NCBI GenBank assembly: GCA_945892985.1
Contig: CAMDDU010000004.1
Span: forward strand, 9,910-73,909
From: Bordetella parapertussis
Lineage (GTDB): Bacteria; Pseudomonadota; Gammaproteobacteria; Burkholderiales; SG8-39
Length of the DNA: 64,000 nt
Direction of reading: 5' to 3'
Shown here piece after piece: positions 1-50,702 of the stretch. The notes below the pieces were generated by a model, which was not told where the DNA came from, ran no database searches, and saw only the letters and a list, made by a program, of their open reading frames with translations. The stretch's first letter is position 1; the number at the start of each line of letters is the position of its first letter. The translations under genes and the position numbers were made by a program.

Positions 1-126
1 AAAAACCGGGCTGCGCGCCAGGAATTCAGCAGGCATTTTTCCTCACCCAAGTTCCTGCTCAGTTATCTGGCGACCTTCTTCCCCTATCCCGCGATCGAAC
101 GGATTGCCAGACTGCTTCGACGTTAG
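1..126 (+). CDS. 3' end of a CDS entering from the left edge (partial, function unknown)
   Basis: Frame 1 is open from nt 1 to TAG at 124-126 (..PKFLLSYLATFFPYPAIERIARLLRR*). It is on the same strand as the next gene and ends 18 nt upstream of it. It is absent from the ORF track because it has no start in the window. Confidence 0.3.
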   Translation, partial: KNRAARQEFSRHFSSPKFLLSYLATFFPYPAIERIARLLRR

Positions 127-144
127 AACCCATCATTCACGACT

Positions 145-1278
145 GTGTCCCCTCCCACCAATAAGCCCAGTTTGCGCGAAGCCCGCTTCGAGGACTGCGA
201 CGGCGTGCTTGCGCTGATGCGCCGGAACGGCCTTCCCGTAGAATCGACGACTGCCCGCTGGCATTGGCTTTGGCAAAACAATCCGGCAATCGCCCTGCTA
301 CAGGAACCCTGGCCGATGGGCTGGATCCTGGAGAATGAAAGCGGCATTGTCGGCTATCTGGGCAACGTGCCGATGTTGTACCGGTTTAATGGCAAAACTC
401 TGCGTGTCGGCGCTGCACGGGGGTTTGCCGTGGATCATAGTGCACGCAGCCATAGCCTTCGTCTTGTTGCCGCATATTTTTCCCAGACTGGCGCCGATTT
501 GCTCCTGAACACCAGCGCCAATGCGGCGGCAGCGTCCGTTTGGGGCCTGTGCAAGGCACGCACCGTGCCACAGGCCAATTACGACAAGGTATTGCTCTGG
601 ATACTGAAGGATCGGGCCTTCGTTGAATCCTACCTCCTCAAACTGGGCAAAGCGCCGTGGTTGGCGAAGCTCGCGGCGTTCCTGGCGGCCCCAGCCGTGT
701 CGGCAGAGGGCATCGTGCGCCGCCGTATCCCGCGATCCAGTTCATCAGGAGCCGTTGTTTCTGTCCTCGACCCGAGCGAAATCGGGGAGGAGTTTGACGT
801 ACTTTGGCAGGACATTGTGAAGTCCCGCCCTGACCGCCTTCTGGCTGACCGAAGCGCGCATTCCCTGTGCTGGCATTTTGATACCCAAAACGCCGTGGAG
901 CGACAGGCGAAGGTGATCGCACTGAGACGAAATGGCGTTTTGAGCGGTTACGCCATACTCACGCGGGAGGATTCCGGGAGGCTGGGACTCAAACGCGCCC
1001 GCATCTCCGACATGATTGCGAAAGACGACGACGTCTCGGCTATCGATGACTTACTTGCCGCGTCCTACAAGCAGGCAAAGGCCACTGGCTGCCACGCCCT
1101 GGAGCTTGTCGGATTCCCCGGCTTTGTACGCGAACGCGCCCTTGCCGCAAACCCGCATATCTACCAACTGCCCGCTCCGCCCTACTGGTACAAGGCCCGA
1201 GACCCGTTGCTTGCCTCGGAACTGGAAAAAGAACTGCACTGGTACGCCTTGCCGTACGACGGCGACGCGACACTCTGA
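145..1278 (+). CDS. GNAT/FemAB-like acyltransferase (377 aa)
   Basis: GTG start. The N-terminal region (REARFEDCDGVLALMRRNGL...GIVGYLGNVPMLYRF..RVGAARGFAV) looks like a GNAT fold, with a long C-terminal extension. It is the first gene of the + operon, and the next gene starts 3 nt after its stop. Confidence 0.6.
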   Translation: MSPPTNKPSLREARFEDCDGVLALMRRNGLPVESTTARWHWLWQNNPAIALLQEPWPMGWILENESGIVGYLGNVPMLYRFNGKTLRVGAARGFAVDHSARSHSLRLVAAYFSQTGADLLLNTSANAAAASVWGLCKARTVPQANYDKVLLWILKDRAFVESYLLKLGKAPWLAKLAAFLAAPAVSAEGIVRRRIPRSSSSGAVVSVLDPSEIGEEFDVLWQDIVKSRPDRLLADRSAHSLCWHFDTQNAVERQAKVIALRRNGVLSGYAILTREDSGRLGLKRARISDMIAKDDDVSAIDDLLAASYKQAKATGCHALELVGFPGFVRERALAANPHIYQLPAPPYWYKARDPLLASELEKELHWYALPYDGDATL

Positions 1279-1281
1279 TCG

Positions 1282-2451
1282 ATGAACCAGCCGAAACAAA
1301 TCTCTGACTGGAAGATAGGGGACAGTCGCTCACTCATACACACCTTCTCGGCTGAAGAATTGCACGCGTTTGCCCGTCTCATCGGGGATATGAACCCGCT
1401 GCATGTGGACCGCGCCTATGCCGAACGCACTGCCGCTGGCGGTCCCGTCGTTCACGGAATGCTCGCCGCGTCTTTCATTTCCACGCTCATCGGCGTACAT
1501 ATCCCAGGACCGGGCGCGCTTTGGAATTCGTTCCAGATCAATTGGCGAAAGATGATCCGTATCGGCGATACACTTCGCCTCGAAGCGCACGTGACCGCAG
1601 TACACACAGGCAGCAGCACGCTTGATCTGGAAATACGCGGCTATTGCAGTGAAGAAGTTTATCTTGACGGTAAAGCAAGGGTGATGATCATGTCTGAATC
1701 CAAAATTGGCAAGGCTGCTGGATTATCCGGCAAGCGAATCCTGGTGACGGGGGCGAGCGGCGTTCTGGGCAGTACCATCTGCCAAACTCTGGCCGCAGCC
1801 GGCGCCCATCTGGTTTTATGGGGCAGGGATGCAACGCGACTGAACGAACTCAAATCCAGGCTTGGCGAACCGGCAACCTGTGAGGTGGCGGATCTGCTCG
1901 ATCCGGCCAGCATTGAAGCCGCGCTTGTAAAAACCCTTGCCTCCGGCCCCATCTACGGTTTTATCCATGCGGCGGCCGCTCCCATCGTGTACTCAGCCAT
2001 AGACGATCCACAAAACCAGGTTCAACTCGGCTTGCATTGGTCGGTGAGCGTCGCGGCACTCAATCAAATCGCCCAGCGTGTTGCCGCGGGCATGCACGAC
2101 AGCGGTGTCATCGTTGCCGTACTTGCCGACGCCATACTGGAAACCCCGGCTCCAAAGACATCCGCATATGTGGCGGCCAAGCTTGCGGCATTGGGACTCG
2201 TGCGCGCCTATGCTGCAGAACTCGGAGTCAAAGGCGTACGGTGCAACGCGGTATCGCCCGGCATGATGGATACCCCCTACACACGGGACATGCCGGTACG
2301 CATCAAACAGGTAAAAGCCGCAAGCAACCCGATGCGACGCCTGTGCCATCCGGAAGATGTCGCAAATGCGGTACTGTATCTGGCGGGCGACAGCTCCGGG
2401 TTCATCAATGGCGTGAACCTTCCAGTAACCGGCGGATCGAGCATGTCCTAA
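1282..2451 (+). CDS. MaoC-like (R)-hydratase hot-dog domain fused to a short-chain dehydrogenase/reductase
   Basis: N-terminus: GDMNPLHVDRAYAERTAAGGPVVHGMLAASFISTLIG (MaoC dehydratase signature). C-terminus: KRILVTGASGVLGS (Rossmann TGxxxGxG) and SAYVAAKLAA (YxxxK) of an SDR. Confidence 0.8.
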   Translation: MNQPKQISDWKIGDSRSLIHTFSAEELHAFARLIGDMNPLHVDRAYAERTAAGGPVVHGMLAASFISTLIGVHIPGPGALWNSFQINWRKMIRIGDTLRLEAHVTAVHTGSSTLDLEIRGYCSEEVYLDGKARVMIMSESKIGKAAGLSGKRILVTGASGVLGSTICQTLAAAGAHLVLWGRDATRLNELKSRLGEPATCEVADLLDPASIEAALVKTLASGPIYGFIHAAAAPIVYSAIDDPQNQVQLGLHWSVSVAALNQIAQRVAAGMHDSGVIVAVLADAILETPAPKTSAYVAAKLAALGLVRAYAAELGVKGVRCNAVSPGMMDTPYTRDMPVRIKQVKAASNPMRRLCHPEDVANAVLYLAGDSSGFINGVNLPVTGGSSMS

Positions 2452-2454
2452 GCG

Positions 2455-4305
2455 ATGAGTTTGCCGGATATCCCCTCCGTCTGGCCTGCGCCCCTCAGAG
2501 CCGAGATCGATGAGGCGCTCAAGTCCCGCCGGATTACCGCCGTTCGCAGTGTATTGCGCAAGGTGGGCGAACTACCCGAAGCGATGCGCGGCAGGCCATT
2601 CAACCTTGGCATCGTTCGAACCTTCACCATAGAAACGCAGATCGAAGCCCTTGGGCTTGCGCTCGCTGTGCTGCCTTGCCGGCCGCATCTTTTAGTTGGT
2701 CCGCTTGAAAGCCTGGAGCAAACCCTGCTTGATCCCCAATCGGACCTCCTTCGCGCGCAACCCGACGCAATTCTGGCGCTCTGGAGAATCGATGAGCTTC
2801 ATCCCCGGTTGGCGTACGAAGCCCCCGGCATGTCTGCGACCCAACGCGGGGACGCCGCCGATGCATTAATCGAGCGCCTTGTTGCTTTGTGCAGAAAATT
2901 CACGGCAGTTTCGCCGGCACCGCTGTTTATCTCCACCTTACCCTTGCCTCCCGACTTGGCCGGCCATCCCGCGGACAGTCACGACTCGAATGGCCTTCGT
3001 TCCATCGTGTTCCGGATCAACCACGCCCTGCTGGCAATCGCATCTGGTGGCAATCAAATCCATATTTTCGATTTTGCAGCTTGGGCCGAGCGCTTTGGTG
3101 AGGCAGCGTTCGATCGAAAAATGGACTTCTTTGCGCGCCAGCCATTGTCTTCGGCAGCATTGATGTCCTTTTCCACTGCACTCGCTCGAACCTTCCGGCC
3201 GCTGCTTTATCCTTCAAGCAAAGTCCTTGCGCTTGATCTTGATAACGTTCTCTGGGGGGGGGTAATGGGCGAGGAAGGCCTGCAGGGATTGAAAATCGGT
3301 CATGACTTTCCGGGAAACGTCTATCGGCGCATACAGCAATACGCACTTAATCTCAGGGCACGGGGGACGCTGCTCGTTTTGCTAAGCAAAAATAACCAGG
3401 AGGATGTGGAGGAAGCATTTGGCAGCCTGCCGGACATGCCTCTCAGGCTCGAACATTTTTCGGCGACCCGGATCAATTGGCGCGAAAAGCACACAAACCT
3501 TGCTGAAATAGCCACCGAACTCAGTCTGGGCCTCGACAGCTTTGTCTTTGTTGACGACCAGCAATTCGAACGCGAGCAAATGATGTTCAATCTGCCTCAA
3601 GTCAAAACCCTTCCGGTCACTGAAGATCCGCTTGCAATCCTGAATGCGCTTACGGGTTGCGGGTACTTTGACGCTTATCGCACAAGCACCGAGGATCTGA
3701 TGCGCAGCAACGACTACGCCATGCAGCATCAGCGCAAGGAACTCGAACGCAGAAGCGGAAGCGGCGAGGAATTCCTCGCAACCCTGAACCTTCAGGCGAC
3801 CATCTCCCCGGTCAATGATGCATCGTTGGGTCGGGCGGTACAGATGCTGGCGAAGACCAATCAATTCAACGTTTCGACGCGCCGCCACGACGAAGCTGAC
3901 ATTCGACGCCTGATGGCCGGGCCTCGCAACGTCTTGCTTGTTCTTTCCCTTCGCGACCGCTTTAGCGATCAGGGGATTGTCGGGATCGGCATAGCGGTAA
4001 CCGGGGCGACCACTGATGAAGTTTTCATCGACAGCCTGCTCCTGAGTTGCCGCGCGATTGGACGGGGCGCTGAGGCCGTCTTGTGGGCAGCCATCATCTC
4101 GCGCGTCAATGCACTCGGGTACCGGCGCCTGTCCGCCGATTTCCTTGCCTCCAGTAAAAATCAGCAGGTTGCCGATCTGTTCGATAAGTTCGGCATGCAA
4201 AGGATTGGGGAAGACAGCGGGCGCCGGCGCTATGTCCTCGAATTGCCTGCAAATGCACCCACACCCGACTGGATCGACATACAGGATATGCAGGGCAATG
4301 AGTAA
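2455..4305 (+). CDS. FkbH-like HAD-IIIC phosphatase/acyl-loading protein with a C-terminal GNAT-like domain
   Basis: LALDLDNVLWGGVMGEEG is the FkbH/HAD-IIIC nucleophile motif. The remaining HAD motifs are also present (LLSKNNQEDV.. ; FVFVDDQQFE). The C-terminal part (QGIVGIGIAV..LLLSCRAIGRGAE) matches the acyltransferase-like tail typical of this family. Confidence 0.8.
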   Translation: MSLPDIPSVWPAPLRAEIDEALKSRRITAVRSVLRKVGELPEAMRGRPFNLGIVRTFTIETQIEALGLALAVLPCRPHLLVGPLESLEQTLLDPQSDLLRAQPDAILALWRIDELHPRLAYEAPGMSATQRGDAADALIERLVALCRKFTAVSPAPLFISTLPLPPDLAGHPADSHDSNGLRSIVFRINHALLAIASGGNQIHIFDFAAWAERFGEAAFDRKMDFFARQPLSSAALMSFSTALARTFRPLLYPSSKVLALDLDNVLWGGVMGEEGLQGLKIGHDFPGNVYRRIQQYALNLRARGTLLVLLSKNNQEDVEEAFGSLPDMPLRLEHFSATRINWREKHTNLAEIATELSLGLDSFVFVDDQQFEREQMMFNLPQVKTLPVTEDPLAILNALTGCGYFDAYRTSTEDLMRSNDYAMQHQRKELERRSGSGEEFLATLNLQATISPVNDASLGRAVQMLAKTNQFNVSTRRHDEADIRRLMAGPRNVLLVLSLRDRFSDQGIVGIGIAVTGATTDEVFIDSLLLSCRAIGRGAEAVLWAAIISRVNALGYRRLSADFLASSKNQQVADLFDKFGMQRIGEDSGRRRYVLELPANAPTPDWIDIQDMQGNE

Positions 4306-4540
4306 TCAGGAAAAACTGCTCAAAGCGGCCGCAGAGGTCTTCGGAGTCGACCCGGCAACGATAAACGATGACTCTTCGCAAGAAAGCGTTCCAAAATGGG
4401 ATTCGCTTGGCATGGTAAATCTCGTTGCAGAGCTCGAAGCCGTGTTCGAGGTGCAGTTCGACATTATGGAGATTGCCGACTTCCACACTATTGGCATCAT
4501 TAAAAGCGTCCTTGTCGAAAAGGGAGTTCGCTTTGAGTGA
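4298..4540 (+). CDS. Acyl carrier protein (80 aa)
   Basis: These are the last 80 codons of ORF 4058..4540: MSNQEKLLKAAAEVFGVDPATINDDSSQESVPKWDSLGMVNLVAELEAVFEV.., with a DSL phosphopantetheine-attachment motif. The ATG at 4298 overlaps the FkbH-like stop (ATGAGTAA). Confidence 0.8.
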   Translation: MSNQEKLLKAAAEVFGVDPATINDDSSQESVPKWDSLGMVNLVAELEAVFEVQFDIMEIADFHTIGIIKSVLVEKGVRFE

Positions 4541-4591
4541 CTCGCGCTTTTCGCTTCTTCGTCTCCTCTCGCGAATCGCAGCGCTTATCGG

Positions 4592-5380
4592 GTGGACCTG
4601 ATGGGCTGGCGCAGAGCGGTCTCGCGGATAGTTTCGGAAGCCCATTCGGCTGTGCACTGCCTGAGAGGACCGCGACACGGATTCCGTGTTCTCATGTACC
4701 ACGCCATCGGTACGCCCGCAGACCGCGACCGGTTTGGCTTGTACAGCATTTCCCCGCCGCTATTTGCAAGCCATATGCGGGCCTTGGCGGCTTATCAGGT
4801 ATGTTCAATCAACGACATTCAGACAGATGAAGCTATTGATGACAGATTGCACCTCGCAGTAACATTTGACGACGGATACAAGGACAATCTCTATCAGGCC
4901 GCGCCGATTCTCGTGGATCTTGGCATTCCGTTCACAATTTTCGTATCGACCGGATTTACACAATCTGCGCACCCTTCGTTCCTGTCTCCTGCAGACCTCA
5001 AGGAACTCGCCGGACTACCCCAGGTAACGATAGGCACGCACGGGGTGACGCATACGTCCCTCACCGAATGTGATGACAACTCATTAAGGAGCGAGCTTGG
5101 CGACAGCAAAGCCTATCTTGAAAATCTTCTCGGCCTTCCAGTGAGCACGATGTCCTATCCGTTTGGGGCCGTAGACCGGCGGGTCAGGAGCGCGGTGGAG
5201 GCGGCCGGATACAAAATGGCCTTCTCCAGCAGGTTCGATATCAATCGCAGCGGACGCGATCCTCTTTTGCTTTGCCGGACGGATATTCTCGCCATGGATT
5301 CGGTCAGGATTCTCCGGCAGAAACTCTGTGGCGCCTGGGACTGGTACCGATGGCGCAACCCCGACCCGGCCCTCGCATGA
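4592..5380 (+). CDS. Polysaccharide deacetylase (NodB homology domain)
   Basis: VLMYHAIG.., LAVTFDDGYKDN (NodB motif 1, TFDDG), IGTHGVTH, MSYPFG. The start is either GTG 4592 or ATG 4601. Confidence 0.8.
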   Translation: MDLMGWRRAVSRIVSEAHSAVHCLRGPRHGFRVLMYHAIGTPADRDRFGLYSISPPLFASHMRALAAYQVCSINDIQTDEAIDDRLHLAVTFDDGYKDNLYQAAPILVDLGIPFTIFVSTGFTQSAHPSFLSPADLKELAGLPQVTIGTHGVTHTSLTECDDNSLRSELGDSKAYLENLLGLPVSTMSYPFGAVDRRVRSAVEAAGYKMAFSSRFDINRSGRDPLLLCRTDILAMDSVRILRQKLCGAWDWYRWRNPDPALA

Positions 5381-7203
5381 GTCCGTCAGTCGCCATTGTC
5401 GTCCCGATCCTGAACGAGGCCGCGTCGCTACCGCAACTGCTGGCAGGGATCGCGCAACAAACCGTGCGGCCGCAGGAACTGCTTTTTGTGGACGCGGGTT
5501 CAACCGATGGCAGCGTTGAACTGATTGAAAGCTGGTGGCGTGCTCACGCCTGGCCCCCTGCAGACTGCAAGGTCCTTCGATTGAACGGTGGGCTGCCCGG
5601 TGGCGGCCGCAATATGGGGATCAATGCAGCAAAGTCTGAATGGATTGCCTTCATTGATGGGGGAATTTTTCCCGAGCGTGACTGGATCGAGCAACTTCTC
5701 GCGTGTGCCAAATCACGCAATACGAAAGCGATGTTCGGCTATTGTCATTTTGACGCGGACGGTTCGTTCGAGCGCGCCATATGCGCTCTCACTTACGGAT
5801 ATCTGGCGAAGCATCCCGTACTTCCCGCATCGCTTTTTCATCGCGACGTACTTCGATCTATTGGTCCTTTCCGCGAAGATTTGCGCGCGGCCGAAGATAT
5901 CCTTTGGACGCGTCGGTTCAGTCAGCTCTTCGGCCCCTGGCCCACTTGCCCTGGGGCACGAGTGCACTATCGACACTTCCCTGAAAATGTTTTTTCTGCA
6001 TTTCTGAAATGGCATCGTAACGAGCGCAATGCAGTCCGTGCCGGCGTGCGTAGCTGGCAACATTTTTTCTACTCATTTGGTGTGCCCGCCATTTGGCTTT
6101 CGCCGATTTACTCCCCAGCTGGGGGCGGATTACTGATCCTGGGTTATCTTCTTTTGCGCGGGATCGCCGATCCGATACGTCGCAGTGCAGCGCTCCACTG
6201 GTGGCAAGGCCGCCCGATGGCGTTTTTCATTGCCATTGGCATGTCCGCGCTCATCGACATCGCCAAATGGTTTGGCATAGTAGGGGGGGTTATGGAGCGC
6301 TTGCGAGTTTCGTCTACTGCCCCCCGTGGCAACGGAAACCCGGGGCTTTCGAATATCGATGCTGCCGTGGTATCTGGATTTGGCGATGAGTGGATGCGGA
6401 TGCCGCAAGACAATCTGTCGGTTGATGAACAGACCGGCATTTTTTCCGACTACTTCGATATTTTCCCCTGGAATTTTCTCCCGCACGGGAGTGTTGGCGC
6501 CGATATCGGCTGTGGCAGCGGACGATGGGCGAAACTCGCATCCGAAAAATGCGCTCAATTGCATGCTATTGATGCCAGTACCCAGGTAATCGAAGTTGCA
6601 CGTGGCAATCTTTCGAACCAAAAAAATATCGTATTCCACCACGCCAGCGTGGGGGAATTACCGTTCCCCGATGCATCGCTCGATTTTGCCTACTCGTTGG
6701 GCGTGCTGCACCATGTTCCCGATCATGCTGCAGCAATTCGGGAGATTGCCCGCACCCTAAAACCAGGCGCCCCCTTCCTTGTGTACCTGTACTACGCATT
6801 CGACTCCAGACCCCTCTGGTTCCGGGCGCTCTGGTACGCATCAAATCTGATGCGCGTACTCATTTCACGACTCCCCCACGGCCTTCGCTATGTCATATGC
6901 CAGATACTTGCGCTGATCGTCTACTGGCCGTTGGCAAGGACTGGAGCTGTCCTGGAAAAAATGGGACATATGCCAGACTCCTGGCCTCTTGCCTTTTATC
7001 GCGACAAGTCGTTCTACACCATGCGCACCGATGCGCTTGACCGCTTTGGGACGCGTCTTGAAAAGCGTTTCACGCGTGTCCAAATCAAGGTGCTGCTCGA
7101 GCAATCTGGCTTCAACGAAGTCCGCTTTTCCGACAAACCGCCCTTTTGGTGCGCCGTTGCGATTCGTCGCTCGACCGATGACCCACTAGTGGCGGGGGTA
7201 TGA
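5377..7203 (+). CDS. Tri-partite fusion: family 2 glycosyltransferase, membrane segment, class I SAM methyltransferase
   Basis: ATG 5377 forms an ATGA overlap with the deacetylase stop; the ORF track's 5272 start is an extension. GT2 part: VAIVVPILNEA..FVDAGSTDGS..FIDGGIF. Hydrophobic helices follow (FGVPAIWLSPIYSPAGGGLLILGYLLL, MAFFIAIGMSALIDIAKWFGIVGGV). The methyltransferase part has motif I (GADIGCGSGRW) and LGVLHHVPD. Confidence 0.75.
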   Translation: MSPSVAIVVPILNEAASLPQLLAGIAQQTVRPQELLFVDAGSTDGSVELIESWWRAHAWPPADCKVLRLNGGLPGGGRNMGINAAKSEWIAFIDGGIFPERDWIEQLLACAKSRNTKAMFGYCHFDADGSFERAICALTYGYLAKHPVLPASLFHRDVLRSIGPFREDLRAAEDILWTRRFSQLFGPWPTCPGARVHYRHFPENVFSAFLKWHRNERNAVRAGVRSWQHFFYSFGVPAIWLSPIYSPAGGGLLILGYLLLRGIADPIRRSAALHWWQGRPMAFFIAIGMSALIDIAKWFGIVGGVMERLRVSSTAPRGNGNPGLSNIDAAVVSGFGDEWMRMPQDNLSVDEQTGIFSDYFDIFPWNFLPHGSVGADIGCGSGRWAKLASEKCAQLHAIDASTQVIEVARGNLSNQKNIVFHHASVGELPFPDASLDFAYSLGVLHHVPDHAAAIREIARTLKPGAPFLVYLYYAFDSRPLWFRALWYASNLMRVLISRLPHGLRYVICQILALIVYWPLARTGAVLEKMGHMPDSWPLAFYRDKSFYTMRTDALDRFGTRLEKRFTRVQIKVLLEQSGFNEVRFSDKPPFWCAVAIRRSTDDPLVAGV

Positions 7204-7938: not shown

Positions 7939-9360
7939 ATGAGTTGGTCCGATAGAATCCAAACCGCGCAGCGGCGTCCCCTGCTCTTTGCATGGGCCGT
8001 ATTCACGCTCTACGGCATATGCGCATGCGCTATTGCACAATTGATCGTGCTGCCGTACATACTGCCCGGCATTCACGCAGGACACGGCTTGCTCGCCGGC
8101 GGCGATTTTCCCGGACTGCATGAAATTGCCATTCGCATGACATCAAAAATCGAACGCGAAGGTTGGTCTGCGTGGGAGCTACTGCCCGGCGGCCACTCTG
8201 CTGCCGGAGTTGCTGGCGCAATTTACGCCCTGACCTATCCCGAGCCCTGGGTGCTTATCCCCTTCAACGCCGGGATGCACGCGCTTGGCGGCCTGATCAT
8301 CATGCGGCTTATCCAAATCCTGACCGCAAATACACCCCTATCGTTCTGGTGCGCCGCGCTGTATGTGGCCTTTCCCTCCTCATTGCACTGGGTCAGCCAG
8401 ATTCAAAAGGACAGCACCTATTTTGCAGGAATGCTTGCAGTCCTTCTTGGTCTGGTTGCGTTGATCCATGCGGCATCCAAAAAAGCGCAGCTATCAGAGA
8501 TGGCCGTCGCACTTGGATTCTTGCTCCTTGGCTTTTTACTTACCGGCGTGGCCCGGCTCTACGGGTTTGAACTCATCCGAGGTGCAGCAGGCTTGATTGC
8601 AGTACTTATCGCCCCCTCCATTTTTCTCAGATGGCGTACAAAAGATATTCCGATCGGCCGCTTGGGCATGGTAGCGGCATTAGTGATAACCGTCGTCATG
8701 GCAGGAAAATACCTGCCTCACGAGAAGAGAATCGAAGTCGAATTGCCCCCAGTCGCCGCCGCCAACGCTAGCACCCAGCCGAAGCCAACATTCCTTGATT
8801 CATCCAAGGCGCAAAATGCCCTGGAATTGGTGTTTCAGTGGCAGCGCAACGAACTCCTTCCGGATGGCGTGGATCACGCCATCATGCGGCTGGCGGTAGC
8901 GCGTCGCGGTTGGAGCGGGCCGTCCTACGCGACTGCGGGCAGCAAGATAGATACAGATGTGGAGTTCATCAGCGCCCGTCAATTCGCACAATATTTTCCC
9001 CGCGCCCTGCAAGTCGGCTTTTTGACGCCTTTCCCTGAACATTGGTTTGCACCGGGCGCCAGCCCCGGCGGAACCATCATGCGAAGAGTGGTTGGACTTG
9101 AGATGCTGATTCTCTATCCGATTCTTCTGGTCGGCTTGCCGCTTGCCGCCTGGCGATGGCGGCGAAGGGTGGAATTCTGGATGATTGTTACCTTTTGCAC
9201 CCCAATCATCGTTGCTTACACTTACGTCATGCCAAACATGGGGGCATTATACCGCATACGATACGGATTTTTAATGTGTCTCGCCGCTATAGGTCTGGCT
9301 GCGATCTGGCTAAACTTGCAGACTTGGCGGGCTAACCCTAAACAAACGTCTGCCAATTGA
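7939..9360 (+). CDS. Polytopic inner-membrane protein of unknown family (candidate Wzy-type polymerase or GT-C)
   Basis: 473 aa with many hydrophobic helices and one long hydrophilic loop (about residues 255-345). I recognise no family motif. The call rests on its position in a Wzx-type locus that has no other polymerase candidate. Confidence 0.35.
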   Translation: MSWSDRIQTAQRRPLLFAWAVFTLYGICACAIAQLIVLPYILPGIHAGHGLLAGGDFPGLHEIAIRMTSKIEREGWSAWELLPGGHSAAGVAGAIYALTYPEPWVLIPFNAGMHALGGLIIMRLIQILTANTPLSFWCAALYVAFPSSLHWVSQIQKDSTYFAGMLAVLLGLVALIHAASKKAQLSEMAVALGFLLLGFLLTGVARLYGFELIRGAAGLIAVLIAPSIFLRWRTKDIPIGRLGMVAALVITVVMAGKYLPHEKRIEVELPPVAAANASTQPKPTFLDSSKAQNALELVFQWQRNELLPDGVDHAIMRLAVARRGWSGPSYATAGSKIDTDVEFISARQFAQYFPRALQVGFLTPFPEHWFAPGASPGGTIMRRVVGLEMLILYPILLVGLPLAAWRWRRRVEFWMIVTFCTPIIVAYTYVMPNMGALYRIRYGFLMCLAAIGLAAIWLNLQTWRANPKQTSAN

Positions 9361-10598
9361 CCCAACACTCGCACATTTGCCGTTTTTGCGATGCGCCTCT
9401 TCGCCACCGGTTTTGCGATCTGGGCCTCAATCCACTTTCGAATGCATTCATTCGCAAGCAGGACCTGAGCCTGATAGAGCCGTTCTACCCGCTCCAGGCC
9501 GACGTATGTGAGCAATGCCTGTTGGTGCAGGTGCCGCAATTCGAATCGCCAGCCCGGATATTCAGTGATTACGCTTATTTTTCTTCCTACTCCGACTCAT
9601 GGCTTGCACATTGCGAAGTATTTGCGAACGAGGCCATTGCGCGCTTTAAGCTTGAAAAACAAAGCCGGGTAGTGGAAATTGCCAGTAATGATGGATATCT
9701 GCTGCAATTTTTCCTGCGCGCAGGCGTACCCGTTTTGGGCGTGGAACCGGCAGCAAACGTCGCCATGGCTGCCCAAGCCAACGGCATCGATACCCTAGTG
9801 GAGTTCTTTGGCCAGGAACTGGCCACAAAAATGGCGGCGGAGGGAAAGCGGGCAGATCTCATCGTATGCAACAACGTTTTCGCACACGTTCCCGATCTGC
9901 ATGACTTCACGCACGGCTTGCGTACCCTGCTTAAACCAGATGGGGTGTTGTCTATAGAGTTCCCGCATTTACAAAAATTGATGGAGCAAAATCAATTCGA
10001 CACAATTTACCATGAACACTTTTGCTATTTTTCGTTCCTGACCGCCAATCGCGTCCTGGCACATTACGAACTTGACATCTTCGATGTCATCCAACTTCCG
10101 ACTCACGGTGGTTCGCTGCGCGTGCTGGCACAGCACGCCGACAGCGGATCCAGACCAGTGTCAGACCGTGTCGCCCAACTGGTTGAGCAGGAAAACCGCT
10201 TTGGCATCGAACGCCTGGATCGGTACCTGGACTTCGACTCCCAGGTGCGCGTCGTGAAACGCGAGTTGCTTAACTTTCTCATTGATACAAAACATCAAGG
10301 CAAGTCCATTGCCGGCTATGGCGCACCAGCCAAGGGAAACACTCTGCTGAATTACTGCGGCATCCGACAGGACTTGCTCGACTACACGGTGGACCGCAAT
10401 CCGGAAAAGCAGGGGCGATTCCTCCCGGGAACGCACATACCGGTATTGGCGCCGGAGAAATTGAAACTCACCAAACCCGACTACGTACTGATTCTGCCAT
10501 GGAACATCAAGGACGAAGTTATTTCACAAATCAGCCATATCCGTGAGTGGGGGGGCCGCTTTGTGATTCCGATCCCATCGCTGCAGGTGTTGGATTGA
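9357..10598 (+). CDS. NDP-hexose C-methyltransferase (TylCIII-like, class I SAM)
   Basis: TTG start with a TTGA overlap. N-terminal Cys4 zinc ribbon (CRFCDAP...CEQCLLVQV), SAM motif VVEIASNDGYLL, and the C-terminal C-methyltransferase domain (IAGYGAPAKGNTLLNYCG..DRNPEKQGRFLPGTHIPV). Confidence 0.75.
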   Translation: MTQHSHICRFCDAPLRHRFCDLGLNPLSNAFIRKQDLSLIEPFYPLQADVCEQCLLVQVPQFESPARIFSDYAYFSSYSDSWLAHCEVFANEAIARFKLEKQSRVVEIASNDGYLLQFFLRAGVPVLGVEPAANVAMAAQANGIDTLVEFFGQELATKMAAEGKRADLIVCNNVFAHVPDLHDFTHGLRTLLKPDGVLSIEFPHLQKLMEQNQFDTIYHEHFCYFSFLTANRVLAHYELDIFDVIQLPTHGGSLRVLAQHADSGSRPVSDRVAQLVEQENRFGIERLDRYLDFDSQVRVVKRELLNFLIDTKHQGKSIAGYGAPAKGNTLLNYCGIRQDLLDYTVDRNPEKQGRFLPGTHIPVLAPEKLKLTKPDYVLILPWNIKDEVISQISHIREWGGRFVIPIPSLQVLD

Positions 10599-11125
10599 TT
10601 TTCACGCCCACCCCCATTGGCGGCACGTACATCGTCGAAATCGAACCCGAGAACGATGATCGCGGGTTCTTCGCGCGAACATGGTGTGCCGAGGAACTTT
10701 CCCGCGCCGGCCTGGTGGCAAACCTCAGCCAGTGCAGCATTTCCAACAACCGTTACGCATACACTCTGCGCGGCATGCACTACCAGACAGAACCAGACAT
10801 CGAAACCAAGTTGGTGTCCTGTCGTGCTGGCGCGCTGTTCGACGTAATTGTCGATCTTCGCCCGGGATCGCCCACGTATAAGCAATGGTTCGGCACAGAA
10901 CTGACTGCCGGCAATTATCGCTCGCTCTATATTTCCCCCGGCATTGCCCATGGTTTTCTGACACTTGAAAACAACACCGAGGTGTATTACCAGATAAGCG
11001 GAACCTACGCACCAACAAGCGGGCGTGGTGTGCGTTGGAACGATCCAGCATTTGACATTCAGTGGCCTGCCAAACCCGCGATGATGGCCGAACGCGACCG
11101 GGATTATCCGGACTTCCTGGCGTGA
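10595..11125 (+). CDS. dTDP-4-dehydrorhamnose 3,5-epimerase family (RmlC-like cupin)
   Basis: ENDDRGFFARTW, LRGMHYQ, KLVSCRAGALFDVIVDLR, GIAHGF. I prefer TTG 10595 (AGGTG 5 nt upstream, overlaps the upstream stop) over the track's GTG 10547. The start is uncertain. Confidence 0.75.
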   Translation: MIFTPTPIGGTYIVEIEPENDDRGFFARTWCAEELSRAGLVANLSQCSISNNRYAYTLRGMHYQTEPDIETKLVSCRAGALFDVIVDLRPGSPTYKQWFGTELTAGNYRSLYISPGIAHGFLTLENNTEVYYQISGTYAPTSGRGVRWNDPAFDIQWPAKPAMMAERDRDYPDFLA

Positions 11126-12027
11126 AAAAGGTTTTGCTCACAGGCGCAAGCGGGTTTATCGGCCGGCACTGCATCCCCGCTCTCGCCGCCCGCGGCTATG
11201 AAGTGCACGCCCTTAGTTCACTAAGTAAGCCCAATGAGCCAGATGCGATTTGGCACAAGGCGGATTTGCTTGATGTGTCCAGCATCGGGCCGCTTGTCGA
11301 AAAGCTGCACCCATCGCATTTGCTGCACCTCGCATGGTATGCCGAACCGGGGAAATACTGGACATCACCAGAAAACCTGCGCTGGGTTGCCGCCAGCATG
11401 GAATTGTTCAGGCAATTCGCCGCATGCGACGGTCAACGACTGGTCGCGGCCGGAACCTGCGCTGAGTATCAGTGGCTTGACGCACTTTACAGTGAGGATT
11501 CGACTCCGACGATCCCCGCCACCCTGTATGGCTCGTGCAAGCACGCTACCCAAATCGCGCTTTCTTCGTATGCAAAGCAATCCGCATTCTCAGTGGCCTG
11601 GGGGCGCATTTTTTCTCTGTATGGGCCACATGAGCACCCTGCCCGGCTTGCCGCTTCGGTCATACGCTCACTGCTGCAAAGCGAATTTGCCAGCTGCAGT
11701 GAAGGCCGTCAGGTACGCGACTACCTTTATGTAACCGATGTCGCAGAGGCCTTTGTCGCCATTCTGGAAAGCCCCCTGTCCGGCCCGGTGAATATCGGTA
11801 GCGGTGCCGGCATTGCGGTCCGGGATCTCGTTAAAAACATCGGAGATCTGACTGGAAAACAAGAATTGATCCAATTGGGCCCCCACCCTGGAAATACAAC
11901 CGAACCGGCGGAGATCGTGGCTGACATTCGCAAGCTTCTGTCGACAGGTTGGCGCCCTGCAACCAAACTCGACAGTGGGCTTACTCAAACCATCGCTTGG
12001 TGGCAGCATCAGTTACACACAAGTTAG
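11122..12027 (+). CDS. NAD(P)-dependent epimerase/dehydratase family protein (probable sugar 4-ketoreductase)
   Basis: GTG 11122 forms a GTGA overlap with the epimerase stop. KKVLLTGASGFIGRH (Rossmann) and LYGSCKHA (YxxxK). Confidence 0.75.
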   Translation: MKKVLLTGASGFIGRHCIPALAARGYEVHALSSLSKPNEPDAIWHKADLLDVSSIGPLVEKLHPSHLLHLAWYAEPGKYWTSPENLRWVAASMELFRQFAACDGQRLVAAGTCAEYQWLDALYSEDSTPTIPATLYGSCKHATQIALSSYAKQSAFSVAWGRIFSLYGPHEHPARLAASVIRSLLQSEFASCSEGRQVRDYLYVTDVAEAFVAILESPLSGPVNIGSGAGIAVRDLVKNIGDLTGKQELIQLGPHPGNTTEPAEIVADIRKLLSTGWRPATKLDSGLTQTIAWWQHQLHTS

Positions 12028-12098
12028 ACAAGTTCGCGAAGCTTTGCCCAGCCGGCACGCTCAGCATCCGTGTCGTTTCTTGGCTACGTGAAAGAAAC

Positions 12099-12941
12099 AT
12101 GATGAAAACAGCGGCATTAACCACAAAAGCGAAATTAAGACGGCTGATATACGCCGTTCCTGGAATGCGACGGCTGCGCGCAGCGCTTGGTAGACTCATG
12201 AACACGCCAGATTTCGATGGCTGGGGAATGGTGACGCACACATTCCCGCCCTGGCACGGAGACGGGAACAAAAATGCTGCCGATTTTTCGCGGGGACATG
12301 AAAAAATTCTTCGTGATGTTACGACAGGAAAATTCACGCTGTCACAGTTCCAAGGTCACGAGAGTATCGAACGAGTCCTTGGTGGGTTGATGTGGCGGCA
12401 TTACCTGGTATTCTGGTCTGCTCGATACGCTGCACAACATTGCAAGCAAAAAATAGCCACACTCGTTGAATGCGGTGTATGTGATGGCCTGACGGCATCC
12501 TTTGCCATGAAATCTATCGACAGTCCATTTCGCGCCTACCTATACGATGCGTGGGCCGGCATGCAAGGCGGAAGTTCGATGGCGGAAACAGAAATGGCGG
12601 GGAACTATGATTACTTGGAATTGGAAGTAACGAAGGCCAATCTGCGCGAGTTTGAAGACTCGATCGTATTCATCCAAGGCTATATCCCGGGGTCGTTTTC
12701 TTCCGCCGGCCTACCCGATGCCATTTGCTGGCTGCATATCGACCTCAATGCGGCTTCCCCGACAAAAGCCACTCTGGAAACCATGTTCGATCGTATGCTA
12801 CCCGGATCAGTAGTTCTATTCGACGACTATGCTTGGCACGCACATGCTGAGACAAAAAGCGTTGTAGATGCCTTTTTTGCGAATAAATCCGGGGCACTAT
12901 TGCCATTCCCCACTGGACAAGCAGTCTTTTTCAAGACTTAG
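12099..12941 (+). CDS. TylF/MycF-like (macrocin O-methyltransferase family) SAM methyltransferase
   Basis: Internal ATG 12099 (MMKTAAL..). LVECGVCDGLTA (SAM motif) and WLHIDLNAASPTKATLETMFDRMLPGSVVLFDDYAW (metal-binding D..D..N region typical of TylF). Confidence 0.7.
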   Translation: MMKTAALTTKAKLRRLIYAVPGMRRLRAALGRLMNTPDFDGWGMVTHTFPPWHGDGNKNAADFSRGHEKILRDVTTGKFTLSQFQGHESIERVLGGLMWRHYLVFWSARYAAQHCKQKIATLVECGVCDGLTASFAMKSIDSPFRAYLYDAWAGMQGGSSMAETEMAGNYDYLELEVTKANLREFEDSIVFIQGYIPGSFSSAGLPDAICWLHIDLNAASPTKATLETMFDRMLPGSVVLFDDYAWHAHAETKSVVDAFFANKSGALLPFPTGQAVFFKT

Positions 12942-13004: not shown

Positions 13005-14942
13005 TTAAAGCCACCTTTCCCGCCACGCCTGAAACATCAGAACACCCCACAACTCGTTTTGCCAATTGCGTTGGCCCGAGAGGTGTTCTTCCCATTTTTT
13101 GCGAATCGGCAAGGGGTCAAAATAGCCTTCGGAGCGCAGTCGCGCCTCACCCAGTAGCGTTTCAGCCCAGTCACGCAAGGGGCCCCGCAACCAACTGTCA
13201 ATGGGAATGGCAAATCCCATCTTGGGTCGCTCGATCAGTTCGCGCGGCACATGCTTATAGAGAATTTGACGCAGTATCCATTTGCCTTGCCCTTCCCTTA
13301 TTTTCAAATCCAGCGGCAAGGAGGAGGCCAGCTCGGCTACACGATGATCCAGAAATGGGGCACGCGACTCCAGACTCACACCCATCGTCGCCCTGTCTAC
13401 CTTCGTGAGAATATCGTCCGGCAGGTAGCTCTGCGAGTCAGCATGCATCATGAATTCGGGCAAACCCAGTCCCGCAGGCCAGCGGGATGCATCATTCGCG
13501 ATGGTGGATATAAAACGACTTCCCGCCACCATCTCGATTCCGTGCCAAAGAGAAGTCAAATCAAAATACACCTCGCTGGCGTGCCGCGCGCCCAGCAGCC
13601 GCGCAAGCTTGTGCAGCTTGTCTCCCGGAGCGTTGTAACGCATGCGTCTTGGGATGGCTCCGTTGAAAAAAGAAAATACACGATCCCAATCCTGGGGAGA
13701 AAGAACCCGGATCAGGCGCGCAACCGCCTGGCGGCCCGGCAGGGGCAAGAGTTTTATCCAAGCCCAAAGTTTGCCTCCCCACACATACCGATTGTAGCCG
13801 CCAAAGAGTTCATCTCCGCCATCCCCGGAGAGACTGACCGTCACGTGCGCCCGGGTTAGCCGCGCCACCAGATAGGTCGGAATCTGCGATGAATCGGCGA
13901 AAGGTTCATCGTAGAGGGTTGGCAACAGTGGGATGACATCCAGCGCATCGCGGGGAGTGACATAAAATTCCGTATGTGATGTTCCCAGATGAGCCGCCAC
14001 GGCCTTGGCGTGTTCGGCCTCGTTGAAAGCGCTTTCGTTAAAACCGACGGTAAAAGTGCGGACCTTGCCGGCGCTTTGTTTTTGCATCAGCGCCACAATT
14101 AAAGATGAATCTATGCCTCCGGACAAAAAAGCGCCGACGGGCACGTCAGCAACCATCTGCCCCTCAATCGCCTGGCTGAGCGCCTCCTCCACCTGATCTA
14201 CAGCCCGTGCCGGCATAATCCCGTCTCGGGAAGTTTTAGCGTTATCGCCAAACGACCAATATCTTTGCGTCTCAACATGCCCGTCCGTCCGCGTACCGTC
14301 TATTCGGGCAATGCACCCAGGCTCAAGCTTGCGGATATGTTGATAAATCGTGAAAGGCGCAGGTATGTAATTGAGCTTGAGATACAGGGCAAGCGCATCC
14401 CGGTCCACTTCGGCTTCCCATAGCGGGTGCGCTCGTAACGCCTTCAGTTCCGAGCCAAAAATAAAATGTCCTGCCATATTCCCGTAATAAAGCGGCTTTT
14501 CCCCCATGCGATCACGAACCAGGTAAAGCTGCCTTTCGGCCTTGTCCCAAAGCGCAAACGCAAACATCCCCACAAATCGCCTGACTGCCTCCAATACCCC
14601 CCACTGCGACACAGCAGCGAGCATCACCTCGGTGTCCGAGTGGCCGCGCCAGGCATGGCCGGGCAACTGCTGGCGCAACTCGGCATGGTTGTATATTTCG
14701 CCGTTGAACACGATCGTAAGCCGGCCTGACGATGAAGCCATCGGCTGATGCCCCTCGCTTGACATATCAAGAATCGAGAGTCGGCGGTGCGCCAGGTAAA
14801 TACCCGACGCATTGTCAGACCATATGCCCATATCGTCCGGCCCACGGTGGGCCAGTTGGAGCACCATTTTGGTCGTTATTTCAAGCAAGTTCTCCCTCGC
14901 GATGTCGCGACCGAAAACAAGTTGCCCGGCTATGCCACACAT
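13005..14942 (-). CDS. Asparagine synthase (glutamine-hydrolysing) family amidotransferase, glycan-locus paralogue 1
   Basis: MCGIAG N-terminal Cys nucleophile, PP-loop FLSGGIDSS, 645 aa. It is the last gene of the minus-strand operon. Confidence 0.85.
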   Translation of the reverse strand: MCGIAGQLVFGRDIARENLLEITTKMVLQLAHRGPDDMGIWSDNASGIYLAHRRLSILDMSSEGHQPMASSSGRLTIVFNGEIYNHAELRQQLPGHAWRGHSDTEVMLAAVSQWGVLEAVRRFVGMFAFALWDKAERQLYLVRDRMGEKPLYYGNMAGHFIFGSELKALRAHPLWEAEVDRDALALYLKLNYIPAPFTIYQHIRKLEPGCIARIDGTRTDGHVETQRYWSFGDNAKTSRDGIMPARAVDQVEEALSQAIEGQMVADVPVGAFLSGGIDSSLIVALMQKQSAGKVRTFTVGFNESAFNEAEHAKAVAAHLGTSHTEFYVTPRDALDVIPLLPTLYDEPFADSSQIPTYLVARLTRAHVTVSLSGDGGDELFGGYNRYVWGGKLWAWIKLLPLPGRQAVARLIRVLSPQDWDRVFSFFNGAIPRRMRYNAPGDKLHKLARLLGARHASEVYFDLTSLWHGIEMVAGSRFISTIANDASRWPAGLGLPEFMMHADSQSYLPDDILTKVDRATMGVSLESRAPFLDHRVAELASSLPLDLKIREGQGKWILRQILYKHVPRELIERPKMGFAIPIDSWLRGPLRDWAETLLGEARLRSEGYFDPLPIRKKWEEHLSGQRNWQNELWGVLMFQAWRERWL

Positions 14943-21726: not shown

Positions 21727-22494
21727 CTACCGCACTCTTTTGAGATAACCGTCCGGTGCAACGCTGATCATCAACCGATGCTCAATTTGCTTGTCAATCT
21801 CGAACATCGATTGTTCCTCAAGGAATTCCCATACTGCAGTTTTCGGGTTATTTCCCGGCCCCCAGGGCCTATCCACGGCGGCGGCGGGCAAGTCCTCAAT
21901 CATGGTGTCAAACACCACGCAGTAACTCCCGCAAGTCGCCAGAGGCGCGTATGCGCGCAACTCCGCGAGTACGTGATCGTGAGTGTGATTGGAGTCCAAG
22001 CAGACAAGTACAGCCCCACAACCCCTCGCGCGGTCGCGCACTTGCGAGATTATTTCAGGAGAGATGGAGGAACCCTGAATCATGTCGATACGATTGGACA
22101 TCGGATGCGCCTCGACCGCGACGCGATTGGGCGCGCGTATGTCAATGTCGATCCCAAGAACCTTTCGGCGTGGTTCCGCTGGATCAAGCATCGTGCCTCC
22201 CGCCAGCGCATCGCAATAATCCAACAACGCCAACATTGATGCACTCAAGATCAACGACCCACCATGTGCAATCCCCGTTTCGATGATCAGATCCGGCCTT
22301 ATTTTCCAGATTAATTCCTGCATCGCAACAATATCCTGTGGATATTGAATAATCGGGCGACCGAGCCATGCGAAGTTGTACGAATACTTAGAGACAAAAG
22401 ACGCGCGCATAAATGCTGTGCCTGCCTCGGCAAATTCTTTGTTGCGTCTATTCTCCTCTACACGCGCAAGAACTTCATTTTGAAAATCAGTCAT
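21727..22494 (-). CDS. CmcI/cephalosporin-hydroxylase family methyltransferase (sugar O-methyltransferase type)
   Basis: Internal ATG 22494 (MTDFQNEV..). FAWLGRPIIQYPQDIVAMQELIWKIRPDLIIETGIAHGGSLI is the CmcI family core. It is the first gene of the minus operon. Confidence 0.7.
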   Translation of the reverse strand: MTDFQNEVLARVEENRRNKEFAEAGTAFMRASFVSKYSYNFAWLGRPIIQYPQDIVAMQELIWKIRPDLIIETGIAHGGSLILSASMLALLDYCDALAGGTMLDPAEPRRKVLGIDIDIRAPNRVAVEAHPMSNRIDMIQGSSISPEIISQVRDRARGCGAVLVCLDSNHTHDHVLAELRAYAPLATCGSYCVVFDTMIEDLPAAAVDRPWGPGNNPKTAVWEFLEEQSMFEIDKQIEHRLMISVAPDGYLKRVR

Positions 22495-22733
22495 GCTTAT
22501 CACGCCCCCCCTAGCAAACCACACGCCGGATGCCTTGTATCGGCAGCCCCCGCTAACAGCCCTAATTATAGGGTGTACAGGGGCGCGGCCGCACGGCGTT
22601 GTAAAATGGGAACGTGCGAAGAATGCTTCAGCCTCAAAGTGGGATGACGCGCCACATTGCCGCATTGACCGACACGCAAATATTTATCCCGGCTTGACAC
22701 GATTCACAAACCCATCCCGTCACACCCCAATCC

Positions 22734-48944: not shown

Positions 48945-49136
48945 ATGGATAGTGAACTTACCAGCCTTGAGGAAAAGATCGATCGCACGGTGGCACTCTG
49001 CCAGCGATTGCGCACCGAAAACCATGACCTCCGACAACAACTTGTCAATGCGCAAAGCGACAACAAAAACCTAGCCGAAAAGGTGGAAGCCGCTCGCGTC
49101 CGTCTCGAAACCATATTGCAGCAAATCCCTGAATGA
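48945..49136 (+). CDS. Small coiled-coil protein, ZapB-like (TIGR02449-type) family
   Basis: 63 aa with heptad-rich sequence (LEEKIDRTVALCQRLRTENHDLRQQLVNAQSDNKNLAEKVEAARVRLE). ATGA-type overlap with zapA. Confidence 0.55.
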   Translation: MDSELTSLEEKIDRTVALCQRLRTENHDLRQQLVNAQSDNKNLAEKVEAARVRLETILQQIPE

Positions 49137-49717: not shown

Positions 49718-49724
49718 TCCAAAC

Positions 49725-50692: not shown

Positions 50693-50702
50693 ATCGCCTC
50701 CT

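Follow-up and report, generated by a model that had tools for sequence, protein, structure and literature searches.

FkbH-family enzymes, each with a dedicated stand-alone acyl carrier protein (ACP), convert 1,3-bisphosphoglycerate to glyceryl-ACP (PMC7489565), and in the FR901464 and lankacidin pathways glyceryl-S-ACP is turned into lactyl-S-ACP by bifunctional dehydratase-ketoreductase (DH-KR) proteins (PMC4765723, citing He et al., 2014). We analyzed a related gene set in a 64,000-nucleotide stretch of a Bordetella parapertussis assembly (GCA_945892985.1, contig CAMDDU010000004.1, positions 9,910 to 73,909; hereafter the window). Five consecutive plus-strand open reading frames (ORFs) at 145-5380, p1 to p5, encode a tandem-GNAT protein, a MaoC-SDR fusion, an FkbH-family protein, an ACP and a NodB-fold (CE4) deacetylase. 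We propose, with confidence that is about evenly balanced, that this cassette assembles a C3 2-hydroxyacyl group on its own ACP, most likely a lactyl (2-hydroxypropanoyl) group, and that a sugar of the O-antigen or lipopolysaccharide (LPS) then receives it.

The MaoC, SDR, FkbH, ACP order of p2-p4 is that of the loading module of the FR901464/spliceostatin trans-acyltransferase polyketide synthase (PKS), which, with the lankacidin DH-KR protein, is among the closest known systems. A tblastn search of plasmids with p3 led to a PKS gene of Burkholderia sp. FERM BP-3421, the FR901464 producer (Bsp3421_RS01755). The first 1500 residues of its product contain MaoC_dehydratas (10-98), adh_short (280-467), FkbH-like (511-1070) and PP-binding (1156-1217) domains, with a ketoacyl synthase from 1256. 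p3 is 30% identical to the FkbH region over 575 residues, including the N-terminal domain and the DLDN/DCDN and LLSCR motifs. The p2-family profile aligned to the first 520 residues of the PKS with an hhalign probability of 99.7% (E 4.4e-26; 312 aligned columns), and the match covers the hot-dog as well as the Rossmann domain. Profile comparison was required here: BLASTP of p2 against the PKS matched the MaoC catalytic segment (53% identity over 38 residues), and a tblastn search of plasmids with p2 at 1e-20 recovered neither the FR901464 nor the lankacidin DH-KR. Because the domain order matches and both the FkbH and the DH-KR parts are homologous, p2-p3-p4 is, as judged from sequence, a disassembled FR901464 loading module in the same order. 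Homology and conservation carry this equivalence and the domain identities, as they do the link of p1 to carrier proteins and the glycan context described below.

The two arrangements also differ. The FR901464 module is part of one PKS chain in which a ketosynthase (KS) follows, whereas the cassette has three separate genes and no KS or other PKS domain after them; the DH region of the PKS has a ~100-residue insertion that p2 lacks; and the FR901464 acyl-ACP primes a polyketide, whereas that of the window is predicted to pass to a tandem-GNAT transferase in an LPS locus. The pathways of the methoxymalonyl (fkbGHIJK) and tetronate types likewise pair an FkbH-family enzyme with a dedicated stand-alone ACP. 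They were the only FkbH precedents named in the original prediction, but we rejected them as models past glyceryl-ACP. The former add two dehydrogenases and an O-methyltransferase and the latter a FabH-like synthase, and the cassette has none of these enzymes (FkbG/I/K, FabH-like) and no PKS. Compared with the FkbH proteins of these pathways, p3 has an extra N-terminal domain of ~250 residues, which it shares with BF1531 and the FR901464 module.

From sequence and predicted structure, p3 and p4 look like a genuine loader/ACP pair. p3 exceeds the cutoffs of the FkbH model TIGR01686 (258.5 bits against 146.65, residues 254-581) and of HAD-SF-IIIC (60.9 bits against 35.75), and it matches 3slr in the PDB (BF1531, 1.5e-29). 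In the AlphaFold2 (AF2) model of p3 (pLDDT 88.9), the N-terminal and HAD domains superpose on 3slr (TM 0.83), and the C-terminal ~160 residues adopt a GNAT fold that holds C532. D261, D263, K312, N313, D367, D368, C532 and R533 are invariant in an alignment of p3 with 29 homologues (43-96% identity). HAD motif I, D261-L-D263-N-V, aligns with LDCDNTLW of the FR901464 FkbH domain, and C532 lies in LLLSCRAIGRG, which aligns with LLSCRVLGR of the same domain; from work on OzmB, the conserved C-terminal cysteine of FkbH is reportedly the acyl-S-enzyme site. p4 matches PP-binding (PF00550; 3.9e-7, 30.7 bits, cutoff 20.8) with the motif WDSLGMV. We also collected FkbH-centred homologous loci, which comprise metagenomic ones and the 80 that ranked best for p3 in GTDB (31-49% identity); in 74 of 81, FkbH has a carrier protein within 3 kb.

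Relatives of p3 are common. Among scored metagenome candidates, 944 full-length matches (~610 residues) were found at E <= 1e-10, and a relative is present in at least 594 GTDB species representatives. A single-sequence scan of genome contigs with p3 found no relative, and a multiple alignment was needed to find them; those contig scans gave no close GTDB representative of the cassette.

p2 matches MaoC_dehydratas (1.5e-18) and adh_short_C2 (6.9e-35) in Pfam, and PhaJ (1iq6, 4.8e-18) and FabG-type reductases in the PDB. Its catalytic motifs are intact: GDMNPLH (the hydratase-2 Asp/His), TGASGVLG (SDR TGxxxGxG) and YVAAK (YxxxK). PhaJ/MaoC-type dehydratases remove the beta-hydroxyl of 3-hydroxyacyl thioesters and FabG-like reductases reduce ketones. 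Since the domains of p2 suit dehydration of glyceryl-ACP to pyruvoyl-ACP and then reduction of the ketone, the predicted product of the cassette is lactyl-ACP, which we regard as likely by analogy to FR901464. That p3 loads a glyceryl unit on the ACP is predicted with high confidence. The original prediction had proposed both an FkbH/ACP loader pair and a C3 unit that is possibly oxidized, dehydrated or reduced on the ACP. The score above the curated cutoff, the invariant HAD aspartates and C-terminal cysteine and the adjoining ACPs bear out the first, and the homology with the DH-KR-FkbH-ACP part of the FR901464 PKS strengthens the second and sharpens it to lactyl.

In the pathway that we propose, p3 would take 1,3-bisphosphoglycerate, its HAD domain would dephosphorylate it, and the glyceryl unit would pass via Cys532 in the GNAT-fold domain to holo-p4. 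The MaoC half of p2 would eliminate the 3-hydroxyl of glyceryl-ACP to give an enol-pyruvoyl intermediate that tautomerizes to pyruvoyl-ACP, and the SDR half would reduce the 2-keto group to yield lactyl-ACP. On the cytoplasmic side, p1 would then move the acyl group off the ACP and onto a nucleophile of a sugar that is linked to a nucleotide or a lipid. p5 would most likely ready the acceptor by taking off an N-acetyl group, such as that of a WecA/WbpM-derived 2-acetamido sugar, so that the product would be an N-lactoyl amino sugar. The first three steps follow published chemistry; we infer what the acceptor is, that the linkage is an amide and what p5 does.

The proposed transferase, p1, had been described as GNAT-type, and this holds for its fold but not in sequence models. 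Sequence searches of the PDB, Pfam and NCBIfam returned nothing useful (no Pfam or NCBIfam family, GNAT and FemAB included, at E <= 0.01), and the predicted fold alone was informative. The AF2 model (pLDDT 90.7, pTM 0.89) is a tandem GNAT over all 377 residues, and Foldseek matched it over its full length to N-myristoyltransferase (NMT) and Eis/Eis2 (probability 1.00, E ~1e-11 to 3e-12, TM 0.53-0.58) at 9-14% identity. PF13508/PF00583 are carried only by the most distant p1 homologue, P0156. The family is large: among 50%-identity clusters it has 677 representatives at E <= 1e-30, or 2128 at the looser E <= 1e-10, and 118 GTDB species have members, among them many Acidobacteriota and cultured strains of Bradyrhizobium.

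The genomic company of p1 suggests what it acts on. It directly precedes the ACP-loading genes in window-type cassettes, and among 79 loci centred on p1 homologues, a carrier protein is encoded within 3 kb in 50 and an AMP-binding enzyme within 5 kb in 46. A p1-like domain is also the C-terminal domain of non-ribosomal peptide synthetases (NRPSs) with a C-A-T-TE-p1 arrangement (condensation, adenylation, thiolation and thioesterase domains; P0192 and P0209, ~1730 residues) and of a KS-ACP-p1 protein (P0249, 1168 residues), which from its place in the chain is the position of a chain-releasing or off-loading domain. Because of its cassette position, its carrier-protein neighbors and these fusions, p1 is predicted, with reasonable confidence, to be an acyltransferase with a carrier-protein thioester as donor, although its specificity for acyl-ACP is something we infer. 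NMT, Eis and FemABX share the two-GNAT-domain fold but use acyl-CoA or aminoacyl-tRNA as donor. Only eight of the 79 p1 loci have an FkbH-like neighbor, so p1 does not define the acyl group, which is set by the loader.

p1 was also considered as a universal partner of FkbH and rejected, since tblastn against the 80 FkbH-centred loci matched near-identical contigs only. A remote p1 homologue (c4_376; hhalign probability 94%) lies directly after the ACP in 21 further FkbH loci; the Acetyltransf_6 GNAT protein found in those loci is unrelated to p1.

Loci from Acidobacteriota (L088-L162) share a block in which p1 is followed by an 86-residue carrier protein (motif IDSTG) and then by an AMP-binding enzyme. 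In fuller versions (e.g., L149, 6-16 kb), genes for an FAD N-monooxygenase-like protein, a Cys/Met-metabolism pyridoxal phosphate (PLP) enzyme and a homoserine O-acyltransferase (HTS) stand before the p1 homologue, and genes for an SDR, a lipocalin-like protein, a P450 and a thiamine diphosphate (TPP) enzyme follow the AMP-binding enzyme. These blocks, flanked by GT2, Wzx and RmlD genes, may represent another carrier-protein-dependent glycan acylation, with a modified amino acid.

p5 matches Polysacc_deac_1 (PF01522; 4.7e-21, 75.5 bits, cutoff 23.1), has the metal-triad motifs TFDDG at residue 91 and HGVTH (HxxxH) at 150, finds 6dq3 as its best PDB match (2e-9), and shows no obvious signal peptide on reading of the sequence. 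Nod-factor synthesis offers a logic for such an enzyme, in which NodB deacetylates and NodA reacylates; MshB/MshD and ArnC/ArnD are like pairings. The cassette similarly has a CE4-fold deacetylase as the neighbor of an acyltransferase and a GT2 within a glycan pathway, but p1 is a tandem GNAT and not of the NodA family, and the reaction order in the cassette is putative. Every window-type cassette seen has a p5-type deacetylase, and 20 of 79 p1-centred and 24 of 81 FkbH-centred loci have a CE4 gene no more than 3 kb from p1 or FkbH, respectively. Tandem-GNAT enzymes of known function are mostly N-acyltransferases. We favor deacetylation followed by reacylation because the CE4 pairing recurs and the nearest folds are N-acyltransferases, and the WecA and WbpM genes of the window would supply a 2-acetamido sugar. 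N-acylation of an amino sugar deacetylated by p5 is nonetheless a tentative assignment to which we give somewhat less than even weight, and the amide route has a modest edge over an ester.

Several observations weigh against the proposal as a whole. p3 is only distantly related to the FkbH domain of the characterized pathway, at the identity given above, and p2 aligns to the PKS DH-KR mainly at the profile level, with BLASTP finding short segments only. Most p1-homologue loci (71 of 79) have no adjoining FkbH. In p5, SYPFG replaces the MT3 motif RxPY, and a pattern search found no MT5 LxH; divergent CE4 members vary at the MT3 and MT5 positions. p5 scores 24.1 bits against the NodB equivalog TIGR04243, whose cutoff is 240, and also falls far under the PgaB, IcaB and HfsH cutoffs; on these profile scores it is NodB-fold, not NodB, and neither NodB nor PgaB is a match. 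The sub-operon upstream of p1 in this variant is a 6-deoxyhexose route with a reductase and no aminotransferase. The glycan-associated clade to which p3 would belong is a putative one, read from sequence, and we found no paper in open-access full text on FkbH-type or HAD-IIIC loaders in a polysaccharide, LPS, O-antigen, flagellin or glycosyltransferase context, although earlier work could exist elsewhere.

The sugar genes just mentioned lead to the strongest alternative, that the acyl group is made as proposed and p1 attaches it as an O-ester to a hydroxyl, for example on the upstream 6-deoxyhexose, with p5 being an esterase or editing enzyme or acting on another residue. No aminotransferase occurs in the upstream series (NTP-transferase, 4,6-dehydratase, 3,5-epimerase-like protein, reductase, GT2) and no DegT-type aminotransferase among the window ORFs scanned, so that the context suits an ester on a hydroxyl no less than an amide. 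In a sister variant (L084, L166) a DegT aminotransferase replaces the reductase while the order GT2-p1-p2-p3-ACP-deacetylase is kept, and this swap suggests that the acceptor may be the product of the sub-operon, through OH or NH2; acylation of the sub-operon's own sugar, by an ester here and an amide in the sister variant, would also fit. In glycans, lactic acid is found amide-, ester- and ether-linked (PMC9912281). Against an ester, the closest structural relatives of p1 (NMT, Eis) are N-acyltransferases, and the CE4 gene is kept in both variants and stands beside p1 homologues in the other loci counted above, as fits an amine-unmasking partner. We therefore consider the O-ester unlikely, if a serious contender, and keep N-lactoylation as the preferred reading.

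A different objection concerns the acyl group itself, since the ACP-bound product might be glyceroyl (with p2 acting elsewhere), pyruvoyl (with dehydration only) or an oxidized C3 unit such as hydroxymalonyl or tartronyl semialdehyde. SDRs can run oxidatively, and N-glyceroyl sugars exist, such as Pse5Am7Gra of Tannerella forsythia (PMC9912281). MaoC-SDR is present in just 19 of 81 FkbH-ACP loci, others having a VOC/glyoxalase-type protein, methyltransferases or sulfotransferases, so the glyceryl unit is apparently processed in several ways across the family. For the window, however, p2 has an intact MaoC motif and is homologous over both domains to the FR901464 DH-KR, whose reported product is lactyl-S-ACP, and the cassette has no FkbI-, FkbK- or FkbG-type genes (acyl-CoA dehydrogenase, 3-hydroxyacyl-CoA dehydrogenase and ACP O-methyltransferase). 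A product other than lactyl thus appears improbable.

That the product decorates a glycan was claimed from the position of the cassette away from any PKS and among glycan genes, and both observations hold up. The window encodes Wzx, WecA-like, WbpM-like, GT2, GT4 and GT9 proteins, and a KS was detected in none of the 85 FkbH-centred loci, which contain glycan genes. Recurrent neighbors of FkbH are GT2, GT4, an AsnB-like amidotransferase, CE4 deacetylase, hexapeptide acyltransferase, sulfotransferases, methyltransferases and a VOC protein; related loci are GT, Wzx and RmlD clusters, and p1-centred loci are flanked by GT2, Wzx and RmlD. The order p1, MaoC-SDR, FkbH, ACP, deacetylase recurs in independent contigs at 54-58% FkbH identity, so the arrangement is not due to chance, and with a flanking GT2 it recurs in five independent window-type loci. 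The nearest named relatives are a Gallionella metagenome-assembled genome (MAG; L087, p1 45%, p2 60% and FkbH 54% identical, same gene order) and a Thioalkalispiraceae MAG, which would make an uncultured proteobacterium the probable source; no cultured organism was found that has the complete cassette. From these neighborhoods, p3 appears to belong to a glycan-associated part of the FkbH family.

It could still be that the product of the cassette is not a glycan decoration but some small molecule or a lipid, for example an N-acylated amino acid or a substituent of lipid A or the core, and that the genes are merely located in the LPS region. Domains of the p1 family occur in NRPS and PKS proteins, acidobacterial p1 loci adjoin amino-acid-modifying enzymes (N-monooxygenase-like, PLP enzyme, HTS, P450), and distant FkbH homologues (~30% identity) on replicons of Ralstonia, B. 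ubonensis and Burkholderia FERM BP-3421 are in PKS clusters. Yet the cassette is translationally coupled to the downstream GT2-methyltransferase gene and lies 18 nt from the upstream GT2 gene, the GT2-flanked order is conserved as described, the cassette has no KS, condensation or adenylation domains, and the acidobacterial blocks have glycan flanks as well; we regard this explanation as quite improbable. Least probable is that p3 is no more than a HAD phosphatase acting in sugar-phosphate metabolism, with the ACP working for some other enzyme, as the NCBI family name (HAD-IIIC family phosphatase) and the coverage of the sole solved structure (3slr, N-terminal and phosphatase parts) might suggest, given the FkbH-specific score, the conserved C-terminal GNAT-fold domain with its invariant cysteine, and an adjoining ACP whose start codon overlaps the p3 stop.

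Other FkbH loci show further variety. A ~150-residue VOC/Glyoxalase_4 protein adjoins FkbH-ACP in 18 loci without MaoC-SDR (L009-L083), often with sulfotransferases too, which suggests that these loci process glyceryl-ACP differently. On Sinorhizobium meliloti pSymB (L169; CP140883.1, 1050782-1055816), the genes encode, in order, an MBOAT protein, a protein annotated as a TonB-dependent receptor, an ACP and a 628-residue FkbH-like 'HAD family hydrolase'; the MBOAT-ACP-FkbH combination could serve Dlt-like delivery of an FkbH-derived acyl group outside the cell, in an organism open to genetic work. Another related module, with the order Hexapep-FkbH-ACP-deacetylase, is present in Tunturiibacter empetritectus M8UP27 (L013). 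For Campylobacter genomes, Table 3 of PMC5554493 lists a subfamily IIIC gene together with ACP, 3-oxoacyl synthase and methyltransferase genes; this set may be an FkbH-type route to acyl groups of flagellin sugars.

The features of the cassette and its immediate neighbors are listed in Table 1. Five consecutive plus-strand ORFs are present, as in the original prediction, and profile searches bear out the domain names given to p2-p5 (MaoC_dehydratas and adh_short, TIGR01686, PP-binding, Polysacc_deac_1). The genes had been described as packed with 3-nt gaps or overlaps, which applies to p1/p2 and p2/p3 (3-nt gaps, 1278/1282 and 2451/2455), to p3/p4 (an 8-nt overlap, ATGAGTAA, at 4298-4305, which forms the end of p3 and contains the p4 ATG) and to p5/p6 (an ATGA overlap at 5377-5380, with the p6 ATG on the p5 TGA), both overlaps being read in the sequence. 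It does not apply to p4/p5, the sole loose junction, with a gap of 51 nt (GTG at 4592) or 60 nt (ATG at 4601). p6 matches Glycos_transf_2 (6.5e-18) and Methyltransf_11 (3.5e-24) in Pfam.

Table 1. Genes of the acyl-ACP cassette and its flanks (window coordinates)
Feature	Position	Strand	Product	Assignment
GT2 gene, 3' end	1..126	+		upstream neighbor, cut by window edge; frame-1 translation ends ...FLLSYLATFFPYPAIERIARLLRR*
p1	145-1278	+	377 aa	tandem-GNAT fold, proposed ACP-dependent off-loading acyltransferase
p2	1282-2451	+	389 aa	MaoC dehydratase (~10-140) and SDR ketoreductase (~148-388)
p3	2455-4305	+	616 aa	FkbH-family loader: FkbH_N-like, HAD-IIIC phosphatase and GNAT-fold domain with Cys532
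p4	4298-4540	+	80 aa	acyl carrier protein; phosphopantetheine serine in WDSLG
p5	4592-5380	+	262 aa (GTG 4592) or 259 aa (ATG 4601)	cytoplasmic CE4 (NodB-fold) deacetylase/esterase
p6	5377-7203	+		GT2 glycosyltransferase fused to SAM methyltransferase; downstream neighbor

The cassette had been thought to head the operon, an appearance that is due to where the window was cut. Positions 1-126 encode the last 41 residues of a GT2 protein, 18 nt separate its end from p1, and this C-terminus is near-identical to that of a 298-residue GT2 in contig L002. Two metagenomic contigs, L001 and L002, hold the same cassette with proteins 95-98% identical, and L002 2721-8701 is 94.6% identical in DNA to window 1-5981. 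In L001, the GT2 gene comes after those of an NTP-transferase, a 4,6-dehydratase, a short protein resembling a 3,5-epimerase and a reductase, in that order; L002 is shorter and keeps only the end of the series. The DNA match to L002 stops at ~5981, inside p6, and downstream proteins are only 60-77% identical, a pattern that suggests recombination at this point of a mosaic O-antigen locus.

As a whole, the window covers an LPS region, with genes for Wzx, many GT2 and GT4 proteins, a WecA-type initiating transferase and a WbpM/PglF-type UDP-GlcNAc 4,6-dehydratase, together with two GT9 heptosyltransferases, a Wzy_C-domain protein, an MsbA-like exporter, O-methyltransferases and a sugar C-methyltransferase with its own epimerase and reductase. 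Genes at 9357-12941 and 21727-22665 encode this C-methyltransferase (Methyltransf_13/14), an RmlC-like epimerase, a reductase, and TylF-like and CmcI/rhamnosyl O-methyltransferases, and the glycan of the locus probably contains C- and O-methylated 6-deoxyhexoses. The ORFs at 10547-11125 and 11062-12027 overlap by 64 nt as listed, and the second probably starts later. A NodU-like carbamoyltransferase gene (31223-32962, minus strand) amid core/O-antigen glycosyltransferases implies an O-carbamoylated sugar. Two AsnB-like glutamine amidotransferases (13005-14942 and 35375-37267, both minus strand) match best, below its cutoff, the XrtA/PEP-CTERM amidotransferase model TIGR03108 (568 and 550 bits against 816.9); such genes recur in 26 FkbH-centred loci. 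Assignment of the locus to the PEP-CTERM/XrtA exopolysaccharide type was rejected, as both AsnB-like proteins fall under that cutoff and p1 and p5 do not match its NCBIfam FemAB and deacetylase models.

At 48945-50700, no convincing ORF is seen for ~1.3 kb after the zapB-like and zapA genes (49133-49441), and next comes a truncated fragment of an integrase N-terminus (50291-50692, minus strand); this may be an integration-site remnant. Scans of the window for tRNAs and Rfam families gave no match, and thus no tRNA or Rfam family, including 6S RNA, at gathering thresholds in this region.

What is new here is a known acyl-ACP module in a glycan setting, coupled to an undescribed transferase family; the precedent for the p2-p4 chemistry is a PKS loading module only. 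The Vibrio cholerae O1 tetronate genes rfbK-O, an ACP-based cassette for an N-acyl side chain, are similar in having a dedicated ACP and acyl-processing enzymes for a short hydroxyacyl group of an amino sugar inside an O-antigen cluster, but that system uses an adenylating loader, whereas the cassette uses an FkbH loader and carbon from glycolysis. Lactoyl amides and esters and N-glyceroyl sugars are known, and no biosynthetic route to them is given in the part of PMC9912281 considered. More speculatively, and with confidence short of even, p1 could found a large unannotated tandem-GNAT off-loading family (at least 677 clusters at 50% identity) that moves acyl or aminoacyl groups from carrier proteins to surface glycans. 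With interchangeable loaders, FkbH for C3 units derived from glycolysis and adenylating enzymes for other acids, this would be a widespread undescribed glycan-acylation system, of which the window cassette would be the lactyl-specific version.

If the proposal is true, the lactyl-ACP route that supplies a polyketide starter unit also decorates lipopolysaccharide, as free-standing enzymes, and rare C3 hydroxyacyl substituents on bacterial sugars, such as lactoyl and glyceroyl, gain a testable origin. It also provides a working hypothesis for two widespread but unannotated gene sets, the pairs of a ~610-residue 'HAD-IIIC phosphatase' and an ACP found in at least 594 GTDB species representatives, and the p1 family, which has no Pfam model. 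C3 substituents alter O-antigen epitopes and phage receptors, so the genes of the cassette could mark glycan chemistry in genomes.

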